From: a virus
Taxonomy: Duplodnaviria > Caudoviricetes
Reading direction: 5' to 3' (one strand)
DNA length: 28,819 nt
IMG/VR virus record: IMGVR_UViG_3300002091_000091
Location: 1-28,819 of that record
The position numbers were made by a program, and so were the translations under genes. Each line of letters starts with the position of its first letter. Position 1 is the stretch's first letter. This document shows, piece by piece, positions 6,725 to 25,905 of the stretch. A model generated the notes under the pieces. It saw only the letters and a program-made list of their open reading frames with translations, was not told where the DNA came from and did no database searches.

Positions 6725-6752
6725 AAAAAGGAGGCAGGGTTAACTACCCCCT
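6725..6752 (-). terminator. putative rho-independent terminator
   Basis: minus strand AGGGGGTAG-TTAACC-CTGCCTCCT-TTTT (stem includes G-U pairs) just after the 6763 stop. Confidence 0.55.
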
Positions 6753-6762
6753 AGTAGATTAA

Positions 6763-7464
6763 TTAATCGAAGTTACCATAAGGATAAGCAGTAGAAGAAC
6801 CAATATTTAGGTCTTGTTGTGCATATTTCAATGTAACAACAATTTGGCCAGAAGTAGGAGCAACTAAACTAGTATTAGTAATTTTCAAAGTTACTACAAC
6901 TTGACTAAACCATGTAGGTTGTGTGCCAGGTTGTAAGTTTTGTACGTCTTGCAATGAACCAAATGCGTAATCTAATTGAGTTCCGACAAATGTTGCTGTA
7001 CCACGAGTTGCTGTAGTAATAGCAGCCATAGTTGCGTAAACACCGGTAGATGTAGCAAAGTTATTAGAAACATATGGCTGGATTGAGTTAGCTGTAACTG
7101 TTCCATCAGTTGGCAATACACCAACATCAACAATAACGTCAGTAATATTTGAGCCTTGTGGGATTAAAAATACAGCGCCACGATAAATAGTTCCAGAAGT
7201 ATCCGCTGTAGGAGCTGAAGCTTTTGTAGGGCCGCTAGTACTATAAGCACCAGATTGTGGGGTATAAATAGTGGCGGAGTTATTAGGGATATTATTTGGT
7301 GTAACAAAAATTCCTGAACCACCACCATAATTAGTAGTATTTGGTGTGGTTACTGCAAAATCTAAAAATGCTTGTTGGGCTAACAAGACTGGGCCAACGT
7401 CACGTTGTGGGCCAAAACGATTATCTCCAGATAAAACTGGACCTTCAAATGTACTACGTCCCAT
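6763..7464 (-). CDS. putative virion structural (decoration-type) protein
   Basis: start MGRSTFEGPV at 7464 after AAGGAG; T/S/G-rich; follows the major capsid gene and has its own promoter. Confidence 0.65.
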   Translation of the reverse strand: MGRSTFEGPVLSGDNRFGPQRDVGPVLLAQQAFLDFAVTTPNTTNYGGGSGIFVTPNNIPNNSATIYTPQSGAYSTSGPTKASAPTADTSGTIYRGAVFLIPQGSNITDVIVDVGVLPTDGTVTANSIQPYVSNNFATSTGVYATMAAITTATRGTATFVGTQLDYAFGSLQDVQNLQPGTQPTWFSQVVVTLKITNTSLVAPTSGQIVVTLKYAQQDLNIGSSTAYPYGNFD

Positions 7465-7476
7465 AATGGACTCCTT

Positions 7477-7546
7477 ATGCAAAAGCGCTTATTTCAATCG
7501 TTGCATCGTCTGCTGGGGCAGTGGCGAAATAAGCAATCACCCAGAT
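7477..7546 (-). ncRNA. candidate structured cis-regulatory 5' leader (two hairpins with loop-loop pairing)
   Basis: CUGGG/CCCAG and AUGCAA/UUGCAU stems; loops GCUUAUUUC and GAAAUAAGC are perfectly complementary; lies between promoter and SD. Confidence 0.55.
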
Positions 7547-7552
7547 AGGTTA

Positions 7553-7581
7553 TTTATACTACTTTTTAAAGCTGTGTGCAA
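7553..7581 (-). promoter_or_regulatory. sigma70-type promoter
   Basis: TTGCAC-17 bp-TATAAA on the minus strand. Confidence 0.55.
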
Positions 7582-7592
7582 GTATTTAAAGG

Positions 7593-7618
7593 AAAAACCC
7601 CGCCTTTTGAGCGGGGTC
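7593..7618 (-). terminator. rho-independent terminator after the major capsid gene
   Basis: minus strand ACCCCGCT-CAAA-AGGCGGGGT hairpin region followed by a T run. Confidence 0.7.
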
Positions 7619-7650
7619 CAAACTTCTTTACGTTTGCGTAAAACTACGGA

Positions 7651-8553
7651 TTAATAAGAACCGTAGATACCTAGTGGGTCAGAGTAACCAAAGCTGTAAC
7701 GCTCACGAGACTTGTAGCGTACGTTTCCAGTATCAAAATCACCATCCATTGAATTTTGTAGCGGGGTACGCTCAAAATGCTTAAGACCGTTAGGTACATC
7801 AGTTGTCAAGAACCATGCATTGGTAGCAGTCAAGAAGTGGTTAATTGTGTAACCTTCTGGAATGGAACCATTGTTTTTAATAGCGTTGACGTCGTTATTG
7901 TTTGTACCAACACGGAGTTCTGTTTCGAGCAAACGAGTTGCAACGAATTGGAGTGCAGGTGGAACAACCAATTTACGTGGTTTTGCAGCGATCAAAAGGC
8001 CACGCTCATCAGTCCAAGCAGCAATTTGAATAACAGCATTTTCAAGTGCAGTTTCGTTCAAGTCAGCAGGGGTTGATGGAGTGTTACCGTTTGTACCGCC
8101 GTTTACCAATGGGTGAGCAGTGCTGAACAAAGTCTGGCCATCACCACCAACGAAGGCGGAGTTAAAACCATTATTTAATACAGCAGCAGCTTTAACCTGT
8201 TTGGTATAAGCCATAGCACGAGCTAGACCTTTGGTATAGCGAGCTGATAAAGAATCGTACAAGTTATCTTCGATTGCTTCTTCAGTTAAGCTAAAGCCAA
8301 GGGCAATAGTTTCGTGGTTGTAGCGAGCTGTCCAAGCTTCTTGCGCATTGTCATAAGCAATGGCAGAGCCTTCATTCTTAACCGGGGCGGCTGAGAATCC
8401 AGACAGTTTTGTTTCTTCTTCGAAAGAACGCTCAGAGGTCTCTGTTTCGTAGATCTCTTTGTGCTCTTCGCCATAGCGTGCATACTCTAAACCGAACAAT
8501 GCGTTCAATCCAGGAAGCAACTCTTTCAGTAGTTGTGCGCGTGAAATAGCCAT
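7651..8553 (-). CDS. major capsid protein (Mu gpT-like family)
   Basis: 300 aa; MAISRAQLLKELLPGLNALFGLEY N-terminus, EDNLY, LVVPPAL and RERYSFG motifs; follows the scaffold and precedes a terminator. Confidence 0.85.
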   Translation of the reverse strand: MAISRAQLLKELLPGLNALFGLEYARYGEEHKEIYETETSERSFEEETKLSGFSAAPVKNEGSAIAYDNAQEAWTARYNHETIALGFSLTEEAIEDNLYDSLSARYTKGLARAMAYTKQVKAAAVLNNGFNSAFVGGDGQTLFSTAHPLVNGGTNGNTPSTPADLNETALENAVIQIAAWTDERGLLIAAKPRKLVVPPALQFVATRLLETELRVGTNNNDVNAIKNNGSIPEGYTINHFLTATNAWFLTTDVPNGLKHFERTPLQNSMDGDFDTGNVRYKSRERYSFGYSDPLGIYGSY

Positions 8554-16373: not shown

Positions 16374-16733
16374 TTATGATGGGCTAAGTGTACCAGCTTT
16401 TTCGTCGTAATGATGTTTTCTGTGGCAATTTGCGCATAATACTATGCACTTTTTAATTTCTTTATACGCTTTAGTAAACATCCTATTACTGATTAGCTGA
16501 CTAACCTCGTACTCTTTTTCGGTAGGATCTATATGGTGGAAGTCTAATGTAGCTGTATGGTTTTCTGGACAGCGAGCGCAATGTAGGGCTGACTTATATA
16601 AGTCCCATTTTTCTTTGCCTCGTTTAGAGGACTGCGCTGTGGTAGCTAATACCTTATCTTTATTTGCTAGATAGTACTTACGGCTGTACTCCTTGTGCTT
16701 GCTTTTTCTTACGCTCTCGTCTTTGTATGGCAT
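16374..16733 (-). CDS. HNH endonuclease
   Basis: CARC, LDFHH and LCANCHRKHH motifs; adjacent to the terminase genes. Confidence 0.8.
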   Translation of the reverse strand: MPYKDESVRKSKHKEYSRKYYLANKDKVLATTAQSSKRGKEKWDLYKSALHCARCPENHTATLDFHHIDPTEKEYEVSQLISNRMFTKAYKEIKKCIVLCANCHRKHHYDEKAGTLSPS

Positions 16734-17166
16734 CTGGATCTAGTTTCCTTTTCCAATAAACGGCCTTGGACATCCCCCAAGGATTTGCTGGAGTATACAT
16801 CTTGAAACCTGCATTGATTAAAGAATTTGCACTAGCGGGATTATTTGTTGTATCCGTGATACACCATGCCCAACCTAACTTCTTAGCTTGCACGAGGCGA
16901 ACTTTAATCATACGTAGTTGTAGGCCATGACCTGTAAAGCCATCCATTACACCTGCTCTACATAAGTAACCGGTATCTGTCCATTTGATCGAGCGTGCCA
17001 GACCCGCAAAACCTACGGGCTTCCCACATTCTGCATAAGCTATCCACCAATGTCCGCGGTCCGGTGTGTATGGTTGGTCTGCTGGCAAAATCTTTTTCTG
17101 AAGAAACACTAACAGATTCCGAATTGCTGGGTTTCTTATATCTACTTTTCTTACCGTGAACTTCAT
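16678..17166 (-). CDS. GNAT-family acetyltransferase
   Basis: PVGFAG, motif-A-like FTGHGLQLRMI and NPASANSL...GF. Confidence 0.75.
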   Translation of the reverse strand: MKFTVRKVDIRNPAIRNLLVFLQKKILPADQPYTPDRGHWWIAYAECGKPVGFAGLARSIKWTDTGYLCRAGVMDGFTGHGLQLRMIKVRLVQAKKLGWAWCITDTTNNPASANSLINAGFKMYTPANPWGMSKAVYWKRKLDPDAIQRRERKKKQAQGVQP

Positions 17167-17917: not shown

Positions 17918-17946
17918 TTGACAATGTAAGTATTATTTGCGATACT
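17918..17946 (+). promoter_or_regulatory. sigma70 early promoter 1
   Basis: TTGACA-17 bp-GATACT with TG upstream of the -10. Confidence 0.7.
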
Positions 17947-17987
17947 CAAAGCGTACCAATTCGGTACTTACTTATAAAGGATATACC

Positions 17988-18596
17988 ATGTCATACATTA
18001 CTACTGAATTAACTAAAGCTGGTTTCATCTCTATCGGATCAGCCTGTGCTGATATTGATGGTCAACGTGATGAGGCTTTACTATCATTTTACAATGCTGT
18101 GCTGGTTGATGGTGATATTGATTATAGCGCATGGGTTGATGGTGCTACATTTTGGAAGCAAGGCTATGCTGAGGCTAAGCATTGCCAGCCTGACGATAAC
18201 AAGGTCTCAGTAGCATGGCATAGCTTTACTAGCGATCTCAAGACTCAATACGATATCGTTAAGCCAGCTAAGCCCACAAAGGCTGGCGCTGATAAGGCTA
18301 AGCAAAGGACTAAACAAGCTGAGGAGATGGAAGCAATCAAGGCTAAGCCAATTGAAGCGCTGGTTGAAGAGGTTGCAATGCTTACCCAAAACCCTACACT
18401 TGCTAACATTCAGAAGGCTACCAAAATACAGAAGGCTGTGGAAGCTAAGCGAAAAGAGGCTATTAAGGATCGCATGGCTGGCATTACTGAGTTACAAAAA
18501 GATGTCAAAGCATTAGTAGGACAATGCTTAGATGAGGAGAAACTAGGCTATATCAAGATGATGTTAGAAGGTGAGGTTGATATCTCCATAATGTAA
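17988..18596 (+). CDS. hypothetical early protein (paralog A)
   Basis: start MSYIT at 17988 after AAAGGA; shares NPTLxNIxxAxK with 19339-19938. Confidence 0.75.
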   Translation: MSYITTELTKAGFISIGSACADIDGQRDEALLSFYNAVLVDGDIDYSAWVDGATFWKQGYAEAKHCQPDDNKVSVAWHSFTSDLKTQYDIVKPAKPTKAGADKAKQRTKQAEEMEAIKAKPIEALVEEVAMLTQNPTLANIQKATKIQKAVEAKRKEAIKDRMAGITELQKDVKALVGQCLDEEKLGYIKMMLEGEVDISIM

Positions 18597-19338: not shown

Positions 19339-19938
19339 ATGAAAACTGTTATCAAAACCCAAGAAATGATTTACGCTTTTGATGAGCAACAAACTGCTTC
19401 AATTAAAGCAAGCGCAATTAACTTCTTTGAATCTGAAGAATCCGCAGAAAACGCAGTATTAACTTATCAGCGCATCATTGGTCTAAAACCGACTTTCGAT
19501 CAGTACGAAATGGGTCGTTTGCTATTCCTCGAAGCGATCACCGAAGTAAAACCCGATATTACCGACAATGCCTTAAACGTGCGCTGGAATACGTTTAGCA
19601 AAAAACTCGGGATCGATAAGCCTAAAAAGACGGACTCTGCCGATGCTGTTCGCAAAGCGAACGAGAGAGCCTTGGCAAAAGAAAAGCAACAGGAAGAATT
19701 TAAGGGCATGACTATCGAGGAATTAAAACACGAAGCCAAGAACTTGCTAAGCAATCCCACACTCAAGAACATTGAGCAAGCGAAGAAATACACAAAGCAA
19801 GCCGAGTTACTTTACAAGGAAGCGAACAAGGAAGAACAAGAACAAAAGGCGCAGTTAGTTAAAGACTTAACTGCATGGGCAAAAGACCAAAGTTATCTTG
19901 ACCTCTACACTATTTGCGAGAACATGGGAGTTATCTAA
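19339..19938 (+). CDS. hypothetical early protein (paralog B)
   Basis: 199 aa, helical K/E-rich; NPTLKNIEQAKK matches paralog A. Confidence 0.75.
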   Translation: MKTVIKTQEMIYAFDEQQTASIKASAINFFESEESAENAVLTYQRIIGLKPTFDQYEMGRLLFLEAITEVKPDITDNALNVRWNTFSKKLGIDKPKKTDSADAVRKANERALAKEKQQEEFKGMTIEELKHEAKNLLSNPTLKNIEQAKKYTKQAELLYKEANKEEQEQKAQLVKDLTAWAKDQSYLDLYTICENMGVI

Positions 19939-23187: not shown

Positions 23188-24282
23188 ATGTCTGAAGTAT
23201 TTTTAAATAAAGTAGCAACTCTTGCAGAAGCAGAGAATCTTATCCTCTCTCTTGGTGCTAACGGAACAGTTCATTTAGTAGGTGAGCCGGGCGTAGGCAA
23301 AACTTCAATGTTTAAGAATATCGTGCGTCGCACAGGCTTTAAAGGTATTTACATTGATGCACCTAACATTGAACTAGGCGAATTAGGTATTCCAATCCCT
23401 GACCATGCCACAAAAACAACCCGAATCTACCCGAATGAGCAATGGGGTTTTCATGTAAATGAGCCAAAGGTTATCTTTATTGACGAGTTCACTAAAGCCC
23501 ACAATGCAGTTAAGAATATGCTTCATCCTATGCTTAATGAACCTCGTATGATTATGGGCATCCCATTGCACGAGAAGGATATTGTCGTAACGGCAGGGAA
23601 TTACTCAGGCGATGGGGTAGGCGATAACATGATGGCTCATAGCCGGAACCGCGTGACTGTTGTGCAAGTAAAAAAACCTCACGCGGGATTTAATCCTGAT
23701 GGCTCGATAGACCATGATTCTTGGGGTGCTTGGGCAGTAGATAATGCGATAGCACCTGAGGTTTTAGCATGGGTTAAAGAAACACCTCATTGCTTGTCTT
23801 CATATCTCGACGGAGCACAAGCGGGGAATAAATATATCTTTAATCCTAAAGAGGCACAGAAGTCTTTTGTTTCCCCTCGTTCTCTTGCTAGAGCATCAGC
23901 TATTCTTACGGCTCGTACAGGTGTAACACTAAACGCAACTATTTGTGCATTAGAGGGGACGATTGGTGCGCCTGCGGCTAGAGATTTGATGGCATATGTG
24001 GAGGTCGCCGACTCGCTACCAACTTGGGATGAAATTTGCAAGTCACCCAATACTGCAATAGTGCCGTCATCACCCGCCGCTTTGTGTCTGCTAGCTTTCT
24101 CTGCGGTGCAAAAGGTTGATCGGGAATCTATCAGTAAGTTCTTTGAATACTTAAAGCGAACTCCAAAAGAATTGCAATCGGTATTCTGTCTTACTGGTAT
24201 GAAGAACGACGACAAGAAGAAGTTGTTTTTGACTAGCCAATCATTCACGACATGGATGCGTGAGAATCAGTACTTATTCTAA
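23188..24282 (+). CDS. AAA+ ATPase (MoxR/dynein-related type)
   Basis: Walker A GEPGVGKT, Walker B IFIDE, sensor-1 TAGN, arginine finger RNR, sensor-2 SPRS. Confidence 0.88.
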   Translation: MSEVFLNKVATLAEAENLILSLGANGTVHLVGEPGVGKTSMFKNIVRRTGFKGIYIDAPNIELGELGIPIPDHATKTTRIYPNEQWGFHVNEPKVIFIDEFTKAHNAVKNMLHPMLNEPRMIMGIPLHEKDIVVTAGNYSGDGVGDNMMAHSRNRVTVVQVKKPHAGFNPDGSIDHDSWGAWAVDNAIAPEVLAWVKETPHCLSSYLDGAQAGNKYIFNPKEAQKSFVSPRSLARASAILTARTGVTLNATICALEGTIGAPAARDLMAYVEVADSLPTWDEICKSPNTAIVPSSPAALCLLAFSAVQKVDRESISKFFEYLKRTPKELQSVFCLTGMKNDDKKKLFLTSQSFTTWMRENQYLF

Positions 24283-24291
24283 GGAAAATAT

Positions 24292-24501
24292 ATGTTAAAA
24301 GAAATTGTTGATGTGATGCGTGAGCATAGTAGGGTCAAAGCCGAGGGTAAACGCTTAGTTGTTGAGATGATCAAGTTGGCAGTAGAAACTGGGTTGACTC
24401 AAGAGGAGGCACTCAAGGCACACCTACCTACTTATTTAGATGGTTACTTAATGGCATTAGGACATATGCCGGAATACAGAAAGGATGCCTTAAATGATTG
24501 A
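24292..24501 (+). CDS. hypothetical protein
   Basis: 69 aa, AAGGA RBS. Confidence 0.6.
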   Translation: MLKEIVDVMREHSRVKAEGKRLVVEMIKLAVETGLTQEEALKAHLPTYLDGYLMALGHMPEYRKDALND

Positions 24502-24691
24502 GATTACCTACGCAGATATGTTCCTATTCGTTGTTATCCTGTTCTTATTAGCTATCTGGGTAAAGACAAAAGTGGAAATGAAAATGCAGAGAAAAGCCAT
24601 GATGCGAGGGTTGTATGCTTTGCATGAAGGTAAAGCCGAAGTAATCGTCGATGAAGTAGAAGGATCAATTCGTTTACAGGAGAAAGTATGA
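24494..24691 (+). CDS. small protein with N-terminal TM helix
   Basis: MFLFVVILFLLAIWV segment; AAGGA RBS. Confidence 0.6.
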   Translation: MIEITYADMFLFVVILFLLAIWVKTKVEMKMQRKAMMRGLYALHEGKAEVIVDEVEGSIRLQEKV

Positions 24692-25905
24692 GTAAGTTAA
24701 CAGCAGAACAACGCATTGAACGCACCCATGTGCAACTAATGAAACACCCTAACTTTTGTTTGTTTTCGGGGTTATTCATGGTTGGCAAGGTGAAGGTTGA
24801 TGAGGAGTGTCCTAGTGCTAAGACTAATGGGGTTGATGTTACCTATGGTCGTGGGTTCGTGGATAGCTTAACTGATAAGGCTCTTGCCTTTTTGATATTG
24901 CATGAGAATATGCACAAGGCTTATCGGCATTTGGTTGTGTGGAAACACTTGCACAAGAAAAACCACCAGCTAGCAAATGCGGCTTGTGACTTTGTTATCA
25001 ACTTGCAAATCCGTGACTACGACCCTGATGGTAGGGATACCGAGATGCCTGTTGATGCCGACGGCAATGTAATGGGACTTATCGATGAGAAGTATCGAGG
25101 TATGGATACGGCTCAAATCTTCCGTCTGCTAGAAGATGAGTATGGTGGTAAGGGCAAAGGCGCTGGTGGCGGTAAAAGGGGTAACGAGGCTGGTCAAGAT
25201 TTAGACGACCATGACTGGGAAGGTGCGGAAGAAGCAACACCTGAGGAACAAGAAGCCGTAGCGAACGAAATCGAGCGAGCATTACGACAAGGTTCAATCC
25301 TAGCGGGTAAGATGGGCGGTAAGGTTTCTAGAGAACTACAAGACTTACTTACTCCGAAGGTTGACTGGCGTGAGGCACTAAGGGACTTTGTTAAGACTTC
25401 AACTCAAGGTAAAGACCAAACAACTTGGCGTCGGTTGCATAAGCGTTACATCGGGTGCGACATCGTCATGCCTTCTTCTTATGATGAGAAGGTTGGGTCT
25501 ATTCTTATTGGTATAGATACCTCAGGCTCTATCGGTGGGGAAGAACTGGCGGGGTTTTTGAGCGAGGTCAAATCTATTTGTGATGAGGTCTCTCCCGAAA
25601 AAATTGATTTACTTTATTGGGATACGCATGTGGCATCTCACGAAGTTTATCAAGGCTCTGAACTTTGCAACTTAACTGAAACAACTAAGCCAGCGGGGGG
25701 TGGTGGTACTAGCCCTGAGTGTGTGCCTCGTTACATGAAGAAAGAAGCCTTAGAGCCTGAGTGCGTAATTATGCTAACCGATGGGTATATCGGGTCGCAA
25801 GACCCAAGCGACTGGCAAATCAACAAGCCTATTCTTTGGTGTATCAAAGGCAATGAAAGATTTAATAGTTCTCAAGTATCAGGAAAGGTGGTTCATGTGG
25901 AATGA
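24688..25905 (+). CDS. metallopeptidase-like (HExxH) plus VWA domain protein (DUF2201-type)
   Basis: LHENMH, N.ACD..IN, MIDAS DTSGS, GGGGT and TDG motifs. Confidence 0.85.
   Translation: MSKLTAEQRIERTHVQLMKHPNFCLFSGLFMVGKVKVDEECPSAKTNGVDVTYGRGFVDSLTDKALAFLILHENMHKAYRHLVVWKHLHKKNHQLANAACDFVINLQIRDYDPDGRDTEMPVDADGNVMGLIDEKYRGMDTAQIFRLLEDEYGGKGKGAGGGKRGNEAGQDLDDHDWEGAEEATPEEQEAVANEIERALRQGSILAGKMGGKVSRELQDLLTPKVDWREALRDFVKTSTQGKDQTTWRRLHKRYIGCDIVMPSSYDEKVGSILIGIDTSGSIGGEELAGFLSEVKSICDEVSPEKIDLLYWDTHVASHEVYQGSELCNLTETTKPAGGGGTSPECVPRYMKKEALEPECVIMLTDGYIGSQDPSDWQINKPILWCIKGNERFNSSQVSGKVVHVE

Follow-up and report, generated by a model that had tools for sequence, protein, structure and literature searches.

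What occupies the space between a phage major capsid gene and the gene behind it, and what might it do there? We examined this question in a 28.8-kb viral fragment (28,819 nt, estimated to be 42% complete; hereafter the window), the minus strand of which carries terminase, portal and major capsid genes. The capsid gene is of the Mu-like gpT type, with a match to PF10124 over 7654-8553 of 43.4 bits against a cut-off of 20.1, and the element studied here lies downstream of it. The initial annotation had placed at this position a leader RNA with two kissing hairpins, and its coordinates for the promoter, the stems, the complementary 9-mers and the Shine-Dalgarno (SD) sequence are all exact on the minus strand. 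The features of the locus are as follows.

7651..8553, minus strand: major capsid protein gene, Mu-like gpT type (PHROG 371 major head protein, E 1.4e-25; Pfam PF25209 and PF10124 Mu-like_gpT)
7590..7619, minus strand: intrinsic-terminator-like hairpin with U tract (10-bp stem; fold z -2.68)
7553..7581, minus strand: predicted sigma70-type promoter (-35 TTGCAC 7581-7576, -10 TATAAA 7558-7553, 17-nt spacer)
7546, minus strand: predicted transcription start (A), two bases before P1, from promoter spacing
7474..7546, minus strand: structured leader RNA with a three-way junction and two pseudoknots (covariation, descriptor, model R1)
7513..7544, minus strand: P1, pseudoknot 1, CUGGG 7544-7540 with CCCAG 7517-7513 in the P3 loop (covariation)
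7487..7534, minus strand: P2, 9-10 bp, 7534-7526 with 7495-7487 and a possible G7525-U7496, closing the junction (covariation)
7510..7521, minus strand: P3, mini-hairpin CUG 7521-7519 with CAG 7512-7510, 6-nt loop (covariation)
7499..7508, minus strand: P5, mini-hairpin CG 7508-7507 with CG 7500-7499, 6-nt loop AUGCAA 7506-7501 (pair counts)
7477..7506, minus strand: P4, pseudoknot 2, AUGCAA 7506-7501 of the P5 loop with UUGCAU 7482-7477, reaching the SD (covariation)
7474..7485, minus strand: P6, weaker 3-bp helix, CUU 7485-7483 with AAG 7476-7474 (pairing compared with shuffles)
7471..7476, minus strand: Shine-Dalgarno sequence AAGGAG (sequence)
6763..7464, minus strand: gene for a 233-aa jelly-roll protein, probable trimeric capsid cement (structure model, weak fold matches, related-family profile)

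The hairpin at 7590..7619 would end the capsid transcript, and a similar terminator-like element lies at most 110 nt upstream of the leader in 46 of 80 homologues. The promoter behind it matches 8 of 12 consensus bases, and a consensus promoter scan of the window did not include the TTGCAC/TATAAA site among its calls. Across homologous leaders, the best -10 box ends 8 nt ahead of P1 in 46 of 79 and a TTG begins at -37 or -36 in 47 of 80. A purine is found two bases before P1 in 68 of 80 homologues, compared with 32 and 24 of 80 at the two neighbouring positions. On the basis of this spacing and purine position, we infer that the RNA would begin at 7546 and that the structure would fill the whole untranslated leader. 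The initial annotation was right in describing a pseudoknotted leader. It fills the interval from a promoter of conserved position to the SD of the gene behind it, which probably encodes a virion protein and has its ATG at 7464 on the minus strand. Immediately 3' of this gene is another terminator-like hairpin (6729-6752, minus strand), so the gene may be a separate transcription unit.

Elsewhere in the window, two paralogous lysine-rich open reading frames (17937-18596 and 19339-19938, plus strand; 37% identical over 115 aa) lie in a stretch poor in open reading frames of any kind, where the GC skew changes sign near 17 kb. Judged by eye from their translations, an AAA-ATPase-like frame accompanies a VWA/metallopeptidase-like frame at 23188-25905 (plus strand), and an HNH-like and acetyltransferase-like pair precedes the terminase region (16374-17166, minus strand).

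The leader is approximately 70 nt long, is present in a single copy in the window and scores 80.8 bits against model R1, which was built with the window sequence included. Because the loops of P3 and P5 form crossing helices, what had been read as two stems are pseudoknots (P1 and P4), and the supposed kiss, P2, is the scaffold. The pairings of P1, P2 and P4 thus stood, whereas the two-hairpin kissing-loop architecture gave way to a three-way junction with two crossing helices, and P3, P5 and the weaker P6 had been missed. The junction linkers are single adenines at 7509 and 7498 and a CCA ending at 7522; a purine at 7522 and at 7509 and an adenine at 7498 were found in 69 of 69 representatives. 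P2 ends 11 nt before the SD in the window, and P4 ends directly at it, as had been noted, with 7477 adjoining 7476-7471. Of the 80 leaders, 18 have an SD core that begins within P4; the distance from P4 to the SD core is 0-1 nt in 50 others and 2-5 nt in the remaining 12. The end of P4 lies 10-14 nt ahead of the AUG in 70 of the 80. P6 would enclose the 3' strand of P4 in a loop and tie up the first three bases of the SD. Three or more contiguous pairs can form in 54 of 69 representatives, compared with a mean of 43.2 and a maximum of 49 in shuffles, and 5 of 69 have no pair at all; some GUG/CAC and CUC/GAG variants support the helix. In a nested model, however, it brings no stability (-9.6 kcal/mol with P6, -9.7 without).

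Nested folding of the window sequence by itself was no better than shuffles (z -0.16, 0.12 and 0.69), so that, with a promoter that the consensus scan passed over, the single sequence proves little. We therefore turned to the homologues. Given that the descriptor imposes pairing, covariation was assessed on a structure-blind, sequence-only MAFFT alignment of 80 leaders, composed of 69 representatives (<90% identity, drawn from 275 aligned leaders) and 11 of the 24 leaders off the fixed register. In this alignment, 86.8% of cells pair, a fraction that none of 500 shuffles equalled (71.5%); controls with slid partners gave 28.6-39.1%, and 23 of the 24 proposed pairs show changes on both sides. 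When all 2,701 column pairs were ranked with a home-made tree-aware null, the top nine were all proposed pairs and spanned all five main helices; four of them have E <0.1, and the best P5 pair has E 0.2. The check for covariation that the initial annotation had called for thus came out in favour of the structure. In the fitted alignment, which is in descriptor register, 13 pairs reached E <=0.025, all of them proposed.

The helices differ in how this support is distributed. Two-sided changes were found in 5 of 5 pairs of P1 (95.2% of cells paired), in 8 of 8 tested pairs of P2 and in 6 of 6 pairs of P4, with 65 and 18 double-change branches by parsimony for P2 and P4, respectively. The middle pair of P3 is the top-ranked covarying pair (UA 59, CG 13, AU 7). 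In P5, the outer pair is CG in 72 and UA in 3 of 80, and the inner pair is GC in 42, UA in 9, AU in 7 and unpaired in 22. The closing pairs are nearly fixed, with C7521-G7510 in 80 of 80 leaders and C7508-G7499 in 72 of 80. The window has a descriptor score of 23.5 and none of the 80 representatives falls below 19.1, whereas no shuffle came to 19, whether made from the window (2,000) or from homologues (2,400). Collectively, these comparisons of homologous sequences indicate that the leader structure is real, far beyond chance.

The product of the gene behind the leader received no name from PHROG, Pfam or the ESM Atlas. It was modelled as a beta-sandwich (pLDDT 88.9), and fold searches were led by the cement proteins GP4 gp1, KHP40 and Pam1, all weakly: the best Foldseek match, 8H89_J, was weak (E 7.7e-3, probability 0.98), and VIA gave Z 6.7 for 7DOU_4 (rmsd 4.5, 114 aligned) and 7EEL_H (5.0, 126), tied with a plant-virus coat. 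The profile of a shorter related family matched the Pam1 cement 7EEL_H at E 0.0011, and the homologue in phage DSL-LC04 carries the annotation 'cement protein'. Prediction of a homotrimer gave 0.93 compared with 0.00 for the best control, a value to which likeness to solved cement trimers may contribute; the runs had at least 87% of contacts in common with pLDDT of at least 87. Among solved pairs, 20 of 30 attained the mark, as did 1 of 23 single chains. Taken together, the weak fold matches, the short-family profile, the DSL-LC04 annotation and the trimer model suggest that the 233-aa protein is probably a trimeric jelly-roll capsid cement. In GP4, as given in the part of PMC9698820 that treats it, the cement is trimeric and 1:1 with the capsid protein, at 540 copies each.

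To assess how closely the leader is tied to this gene, we surveyed its distribution. Among the best 80 loci for the downstream protein, 64 have the leader (63 parsed, and 1 short but visibly intact), 15 have a GIY-YIG gene in its place and one is cut off. An exact 20-base leader pattern, estimated to occur in approximately 820 stored stretches, gave 119 listed matches in viral contigs, of which 111 precede the protein family of the window, 6 precede a gene of the shorter related family and 2 run into the end of the contig. The shorter cement family also yielded more diverged leaders. The descriptor parsed 299 of 310 leaders that were 85 nt or longer, some of them counted in more than one scan; its 11 failures comprise 8 GIY-YIG loci and 3 near misses, and the set leaves out 13 loci that were too short and 11 that were not caught by the gene pattern.

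Searches against cultured phages with tblastn (the cement proteins of the window and the short family) and blastn (the leader) returned nothing useful; a search with the capsid protein, unlike these, did find cultured relatives. Among nine records with related capsid genes, R1 matched DSL-LC04 (40.7 bits) and SAR11 phage HTVC023P (31.7) and found no match in the other seven (HTVC027P, 023Pt_psg01, MinM2, CRP-902, QDWS535, GB2A and ct2G2228). The relaxed descriptor, which is not the null-calibrated version, parsed HTVC027P (23.0) and 023Pt_psg01 (19.4), and in some cultured relatives the leader was not found. A relaxed pattern run over genome contigs gave 120 listed matches, of which 119 were chance and the single real one lies in a phage context; the motif was not found, by partial scoring, in 121 sampled genomes of one bacterial family. 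The leader motif is thus common and is present in cultured phages (HTVC023P and DSL-LC04).

The 15 GIY-YIG alleles (loci L010, L011, L012, L014, L015, L020, L022-L027 and L033-L035, at about 880-1500) retain the promoter and the SD and have no leader, which therefore looks dispensable. In these loci, a GIY-YIG/NUMOD3 endonuclease gene stands directly behind the promoter, its last codons hold the SD of the cement gene and its stop codon abuts or overlaps the cement start. The enzyme may be a candidate cutter of the leader's DNA. No copy of the leader was found elsewhere in five records with this allele (9-34% complete). HNH-type genes are also often inserted upstream of the leader, between the capsid gene and the promoter (L036, L062, L070 and L668), and in Caulobacter phage GB2A (L461) an annotated HNH-type gene occupies the same place, marking the slot as a hotspot for homing endonucleases.

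Does the leader belong to a known RNA family? Rfam gave no gathering-level match for the window, nor for 20 homologous loci; when the cut-off was relaxed to E 10, the weak matches that appeared lay over the terminator or the capsid gene end and none on the leader. The leader did not fit the self-cleaving ribozymes (HDV-like, pistol, twister and hammerhead), there being no model match and no conserved catalytic bases. Polynucleobacter-1 (RF01718) was excluded, with no Rfam match and with seed sequences, in the part of the supplement that gives them, unrelated to the leader. We found no description of the leader in the published literature, although it could be among the 8,500 candidates of PMC10690425 or in the supplement of PMC5737381.

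One Rfam family nevertheless resembles it. Mu-gpT-DE (RF03012) is a 53-nt RNA typed 'Gene; sRNA', which we take to originate from the Weinberg 2017 collection; the name is absent from that paper's main text. The RF03012 model had no match over the window leader at E up to 10 (gathering threshold 49 bits), and its best score in the window's own record was 7.9 bits, away from the leader, compared with 72.3 for the positive control CRP-902. As reciprocal searches also failed, each model missing the other, the leader is not a member of Mu-gpT-DE. Both RNAs, however, occupy the same slot, after a Mu-like gpT gene and terminator and before a cement-type gene, and both end at the ribosome-binding site. 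They share the junction core P2-A-C..G-A-C..G-A-P2', so that the single-A-linked junction with C-G closing pairs that characterizes Mu-gpT-DE is present in the leader, and each has a pairing between its second hairpin loop and a 3' strand. Around this core they differ. The leader is longer (approximately 70 compared with 53 nt), with a P2 of 9-10 rather than 4 bp and a 5' pseudoknot P1 that Mu-gpT-DE lacks, and the outer 4-bp stem of Mu-gpT-DE, CCUG/CAGG, overlaps the SD, as P2 of the window leader does not. The 3' strand of P4 lies before or on the SD in the leader, and its equivalent lies on the AUG in Mu-gpT-DE, where the 3' strand of P2 lies on the SD. The junction triplets are CAC, GAC and GAU in the window compared with GAC three times.

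The pairing over the start codon was examined in 107 distinct Mu-gpT-DE-like leaders, collected by our own pattern with the core fixed (approximately 3,900 stored stretches estimated). The second loop pairs over at least 4 bp with the start region in all 107, compared with a mean of 58.9 and a maximum of 72 in shuffles; covariation is seen at position +5 (G-C 70, C-G 36). This loop pairs with the start and second codons, covarying with Ala or Gly at residue 2 (L459:2996-3053, L463-L583), and the pairing is not shown in Rfam's nested model line. By sequence comparison, the AUG-pairing loop of Mu-gpT-DE is the counterpart of P4. Two covarying pairs are added to the family by CaCoFold in the section of the PMC7657543 supplement that covers it.

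The two leader types also meet in front of related genes. Roseobacter phage CRP-902 has Mu-gpT-DE in the same slot, and its cement gene is 71% identical to that of DSL-LC04, which follows the leader type of the window. In one cement subfamily of 80 loci, we counted 23 leaders of the Mu-gpT-DE type, 10 of the window type, 4 intermediates, 6 of another double-knot form, 16 with other junction forms (SD in P2 or in a loop), 17 that are reduced and 4 that are cut. The intermediates combine P1 and a long P2, as in the window leader, with an AUG-pairing loop, as in Mu-gpT-DE. On the cement protein tree, the two main types are interleaved, with 3 and 4 changes, at least 2 of each being forced. Of 36 distinct leaders, 17 carry GAC at each of the three junction sites, compared with 12 of 1,800 shuffles; for the window's own leader variant, simple threefold symmetry was rejected, GAC being at all three sites in only 3 of 80. 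Other leaders with a GAC three-way junction (L629-L647; L613, L621 and L665; about 640-710) include one form whose closing helix contains the AUG and whose SD sits in a hairpin loop, and another whose closing helix takes up the SD. The shared slot and core and the intermediates make it likely that the leader is a larger relative of Mu-gpT-DE, a homology drawn without a significant model score. The earlier statement that it matches no known family thus held for Rfam searches but not for kinship, given its apparent relationship to RF03012.

What, then, might the leader do? The reading that we favour, and regard as somewhat probable, is that it is a cis-acting element controlling translation initiation, its folded state likely restricting ribosome access. 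The structure is predicted to contact the SD or the start codon. In the window, P4 would lie against the SD and P6 would occupy its first bases; other members would have the SD covered by P4; and Mu-gpT-DE would cover the SD with P2 and pair the AUG with the P5 loop. The junction would be the recognized part and the outer helices would carry the output. A ligand, most likely a phage protein that signals capsid assembly, would stabilize the fold and lower translation, and cement would be made in step with capsids. This reading follows from the retention of the core while the outer helices were repeatedly rearranged to pair over the SD or AUG: within one cement subfamily, leaders with different wiring retain the junction and differ in how they cover the SD or AUG. 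It also draws on the fixed place of the leader between a promoter-like site and the SD and on its association with a single gene family. In 26 of 49 short-family leaders, P1 faces a competing 5' hairpin of 4-5 bp that changes with it, which is what a switch would need; loci with this hairpin include L322, L328, L333, L390, L422 and L452. In the family of the window, however, only 1 of 31 leaders has it. Against the reading, only three of the six SD bases would be paired in the window, and by the marginal helix P6. With 15 of 80 loci lacking the leader, 17 of 80 reduced in another subfamily and some cultured relatives without it, such control would not be essential.

The main rival, to which we give a modest chance, is a constitutive, ligand-free 5'-end stabilizer or translation enhancer that buries the 5' end of the transcript, two bases from its predicted start, and presents the SD for high-level synthesis of an abundant virion protein. 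P1 does begin approximately 8 nt after the -10 box in most members, few unpaired bases are conserved, and the topology recalls exoribonuclease-resistant RNAs, with a three-way junction, a 5' strand that pairs back and a loop paired to a 3' strand. Yet the related Mu-gpT-DE, without P1, pairs over both the SD and the AUG, which would hinder translation, and P4 covers the SD in the same 18 of 80 members noted above. The conserved core with its variable output region, three junction purines, multistem junction with pseudoknots and occurrence in phages of different hosts would suit a riboswitch in which a small molecule or ion binds the adenine-linked junction. This we consider improbable, as only one unpaired column is at least 97% conserved (two more are always purine) and the gene is structural, without a metabolic link. 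That it was not found in the 121 sampled genomes (partial scoring), and the phage context of the sole real match among the 120 listed genome loci, point the same way, and for these reasons a protein ligand is likelier than a metabolite.

Two further alternatives would make the position ahead of the gene incidental or transient. A trans-acting or virion-associated small RNA, for example a packaging RNA, would agree with the predicted promoter of its own, the compact fold and the 'Gene; sRNA' type given to Mu-gpT-DE, but there is no terminator-like site between leader and gene, and the helices extend into the SD or AUG. Loss of the leader in the GIY-YIG alleles, with no copy elsewhere in the five partial records, speaks against an essential trans-acting RNA, and we regard this account as very improbable. 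Least probable of all is a small self-cleaving ribozyme processing the leader. Its double pseudoknot and compact size recall such RNAs, and yet no Rfam ribozyme matched even at E up to 10, and the base at the would-be HDV catalytic C position varies (C 40, A 22 and U 7 of 69). Only nine columns are at least 97% conserved and eight of these are paired, a pattern that weakens both the ribozyme and the metabolite riboswitch put forward in the initial annotation.

If translational control is the function, free surplus cement trimer is a candidate ligand, taking about a quarter of the probability that we assign to that reading. The cement proteins are acidic (pI 4.05-5.45, 4-8 Lys+Arg), unlike typical RNA binders, which counts against feedback by cement itself. 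A bolder and unlikely version would place the leader in a superfamily with Mu-gpT-DE built on a pseudo-threefold adenine-linked junction (its purest form having GAC three times), onto which a threefold ligand (free cement trimer or a cyclic trinucleotide-like signal) would dock, locking the outer helices over the SD or AUG. If true, this would be a symmetry-matched feedback switch by which phages that are among the most abundant in aquatic habitats count the unoccupied sites on their capsids.

We thus describe a structured RNA that appears to be a previously undescribed relative of the orphan Mu-gpT-DE, with a function that we infer from sequence. How tailed phages match cement output to capsid number has been little studied. 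Linking the leader, Mu-gpT-DE and the re-wired forms yields one conserved core with a testable output, occlusion of the SD or AUG. At 70 nt, with two pseudoknots and linkers of one base, the RNA is also a good target for structural work.

Several known RNAs share parts of this design. HDV-like and pistol ribozymes are small and doubly or singly pseudoknotted, with a strand order that partly resembles the leader; the leader's order differs, however, and the catalytic bases are not conserved. In the translational riboswitches preQ1-II, SAM-II and SAM-V, a pseudoknot helix reaches the SD, as in the leader, which, unlike them, has no Rfam match, has few conserved unpaired bases, precedes a structural gene and is phage-restricted in the data searched. 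Functional parallels are the E. coli alpha operon/S4 and rpsO/S15 translational operators, described in the relevant part of PMC10931766 as pseudoknot or three-way-junction structures, and the autoregulation of the P22 scaffolding protein, as presented in the corresponding part of 10.1101/2022.12.13.520362. The product of the leader's gene, unlike theirs, is acidic and without an RNA-binding fold, and a protein ligand is putative. As in these systems, to the extent that those sources portray them, a structured leader lies at the initiation site of a gene whose product is stoichiometrically matched to a partner, and its structure varies by lineage around a recognized core.
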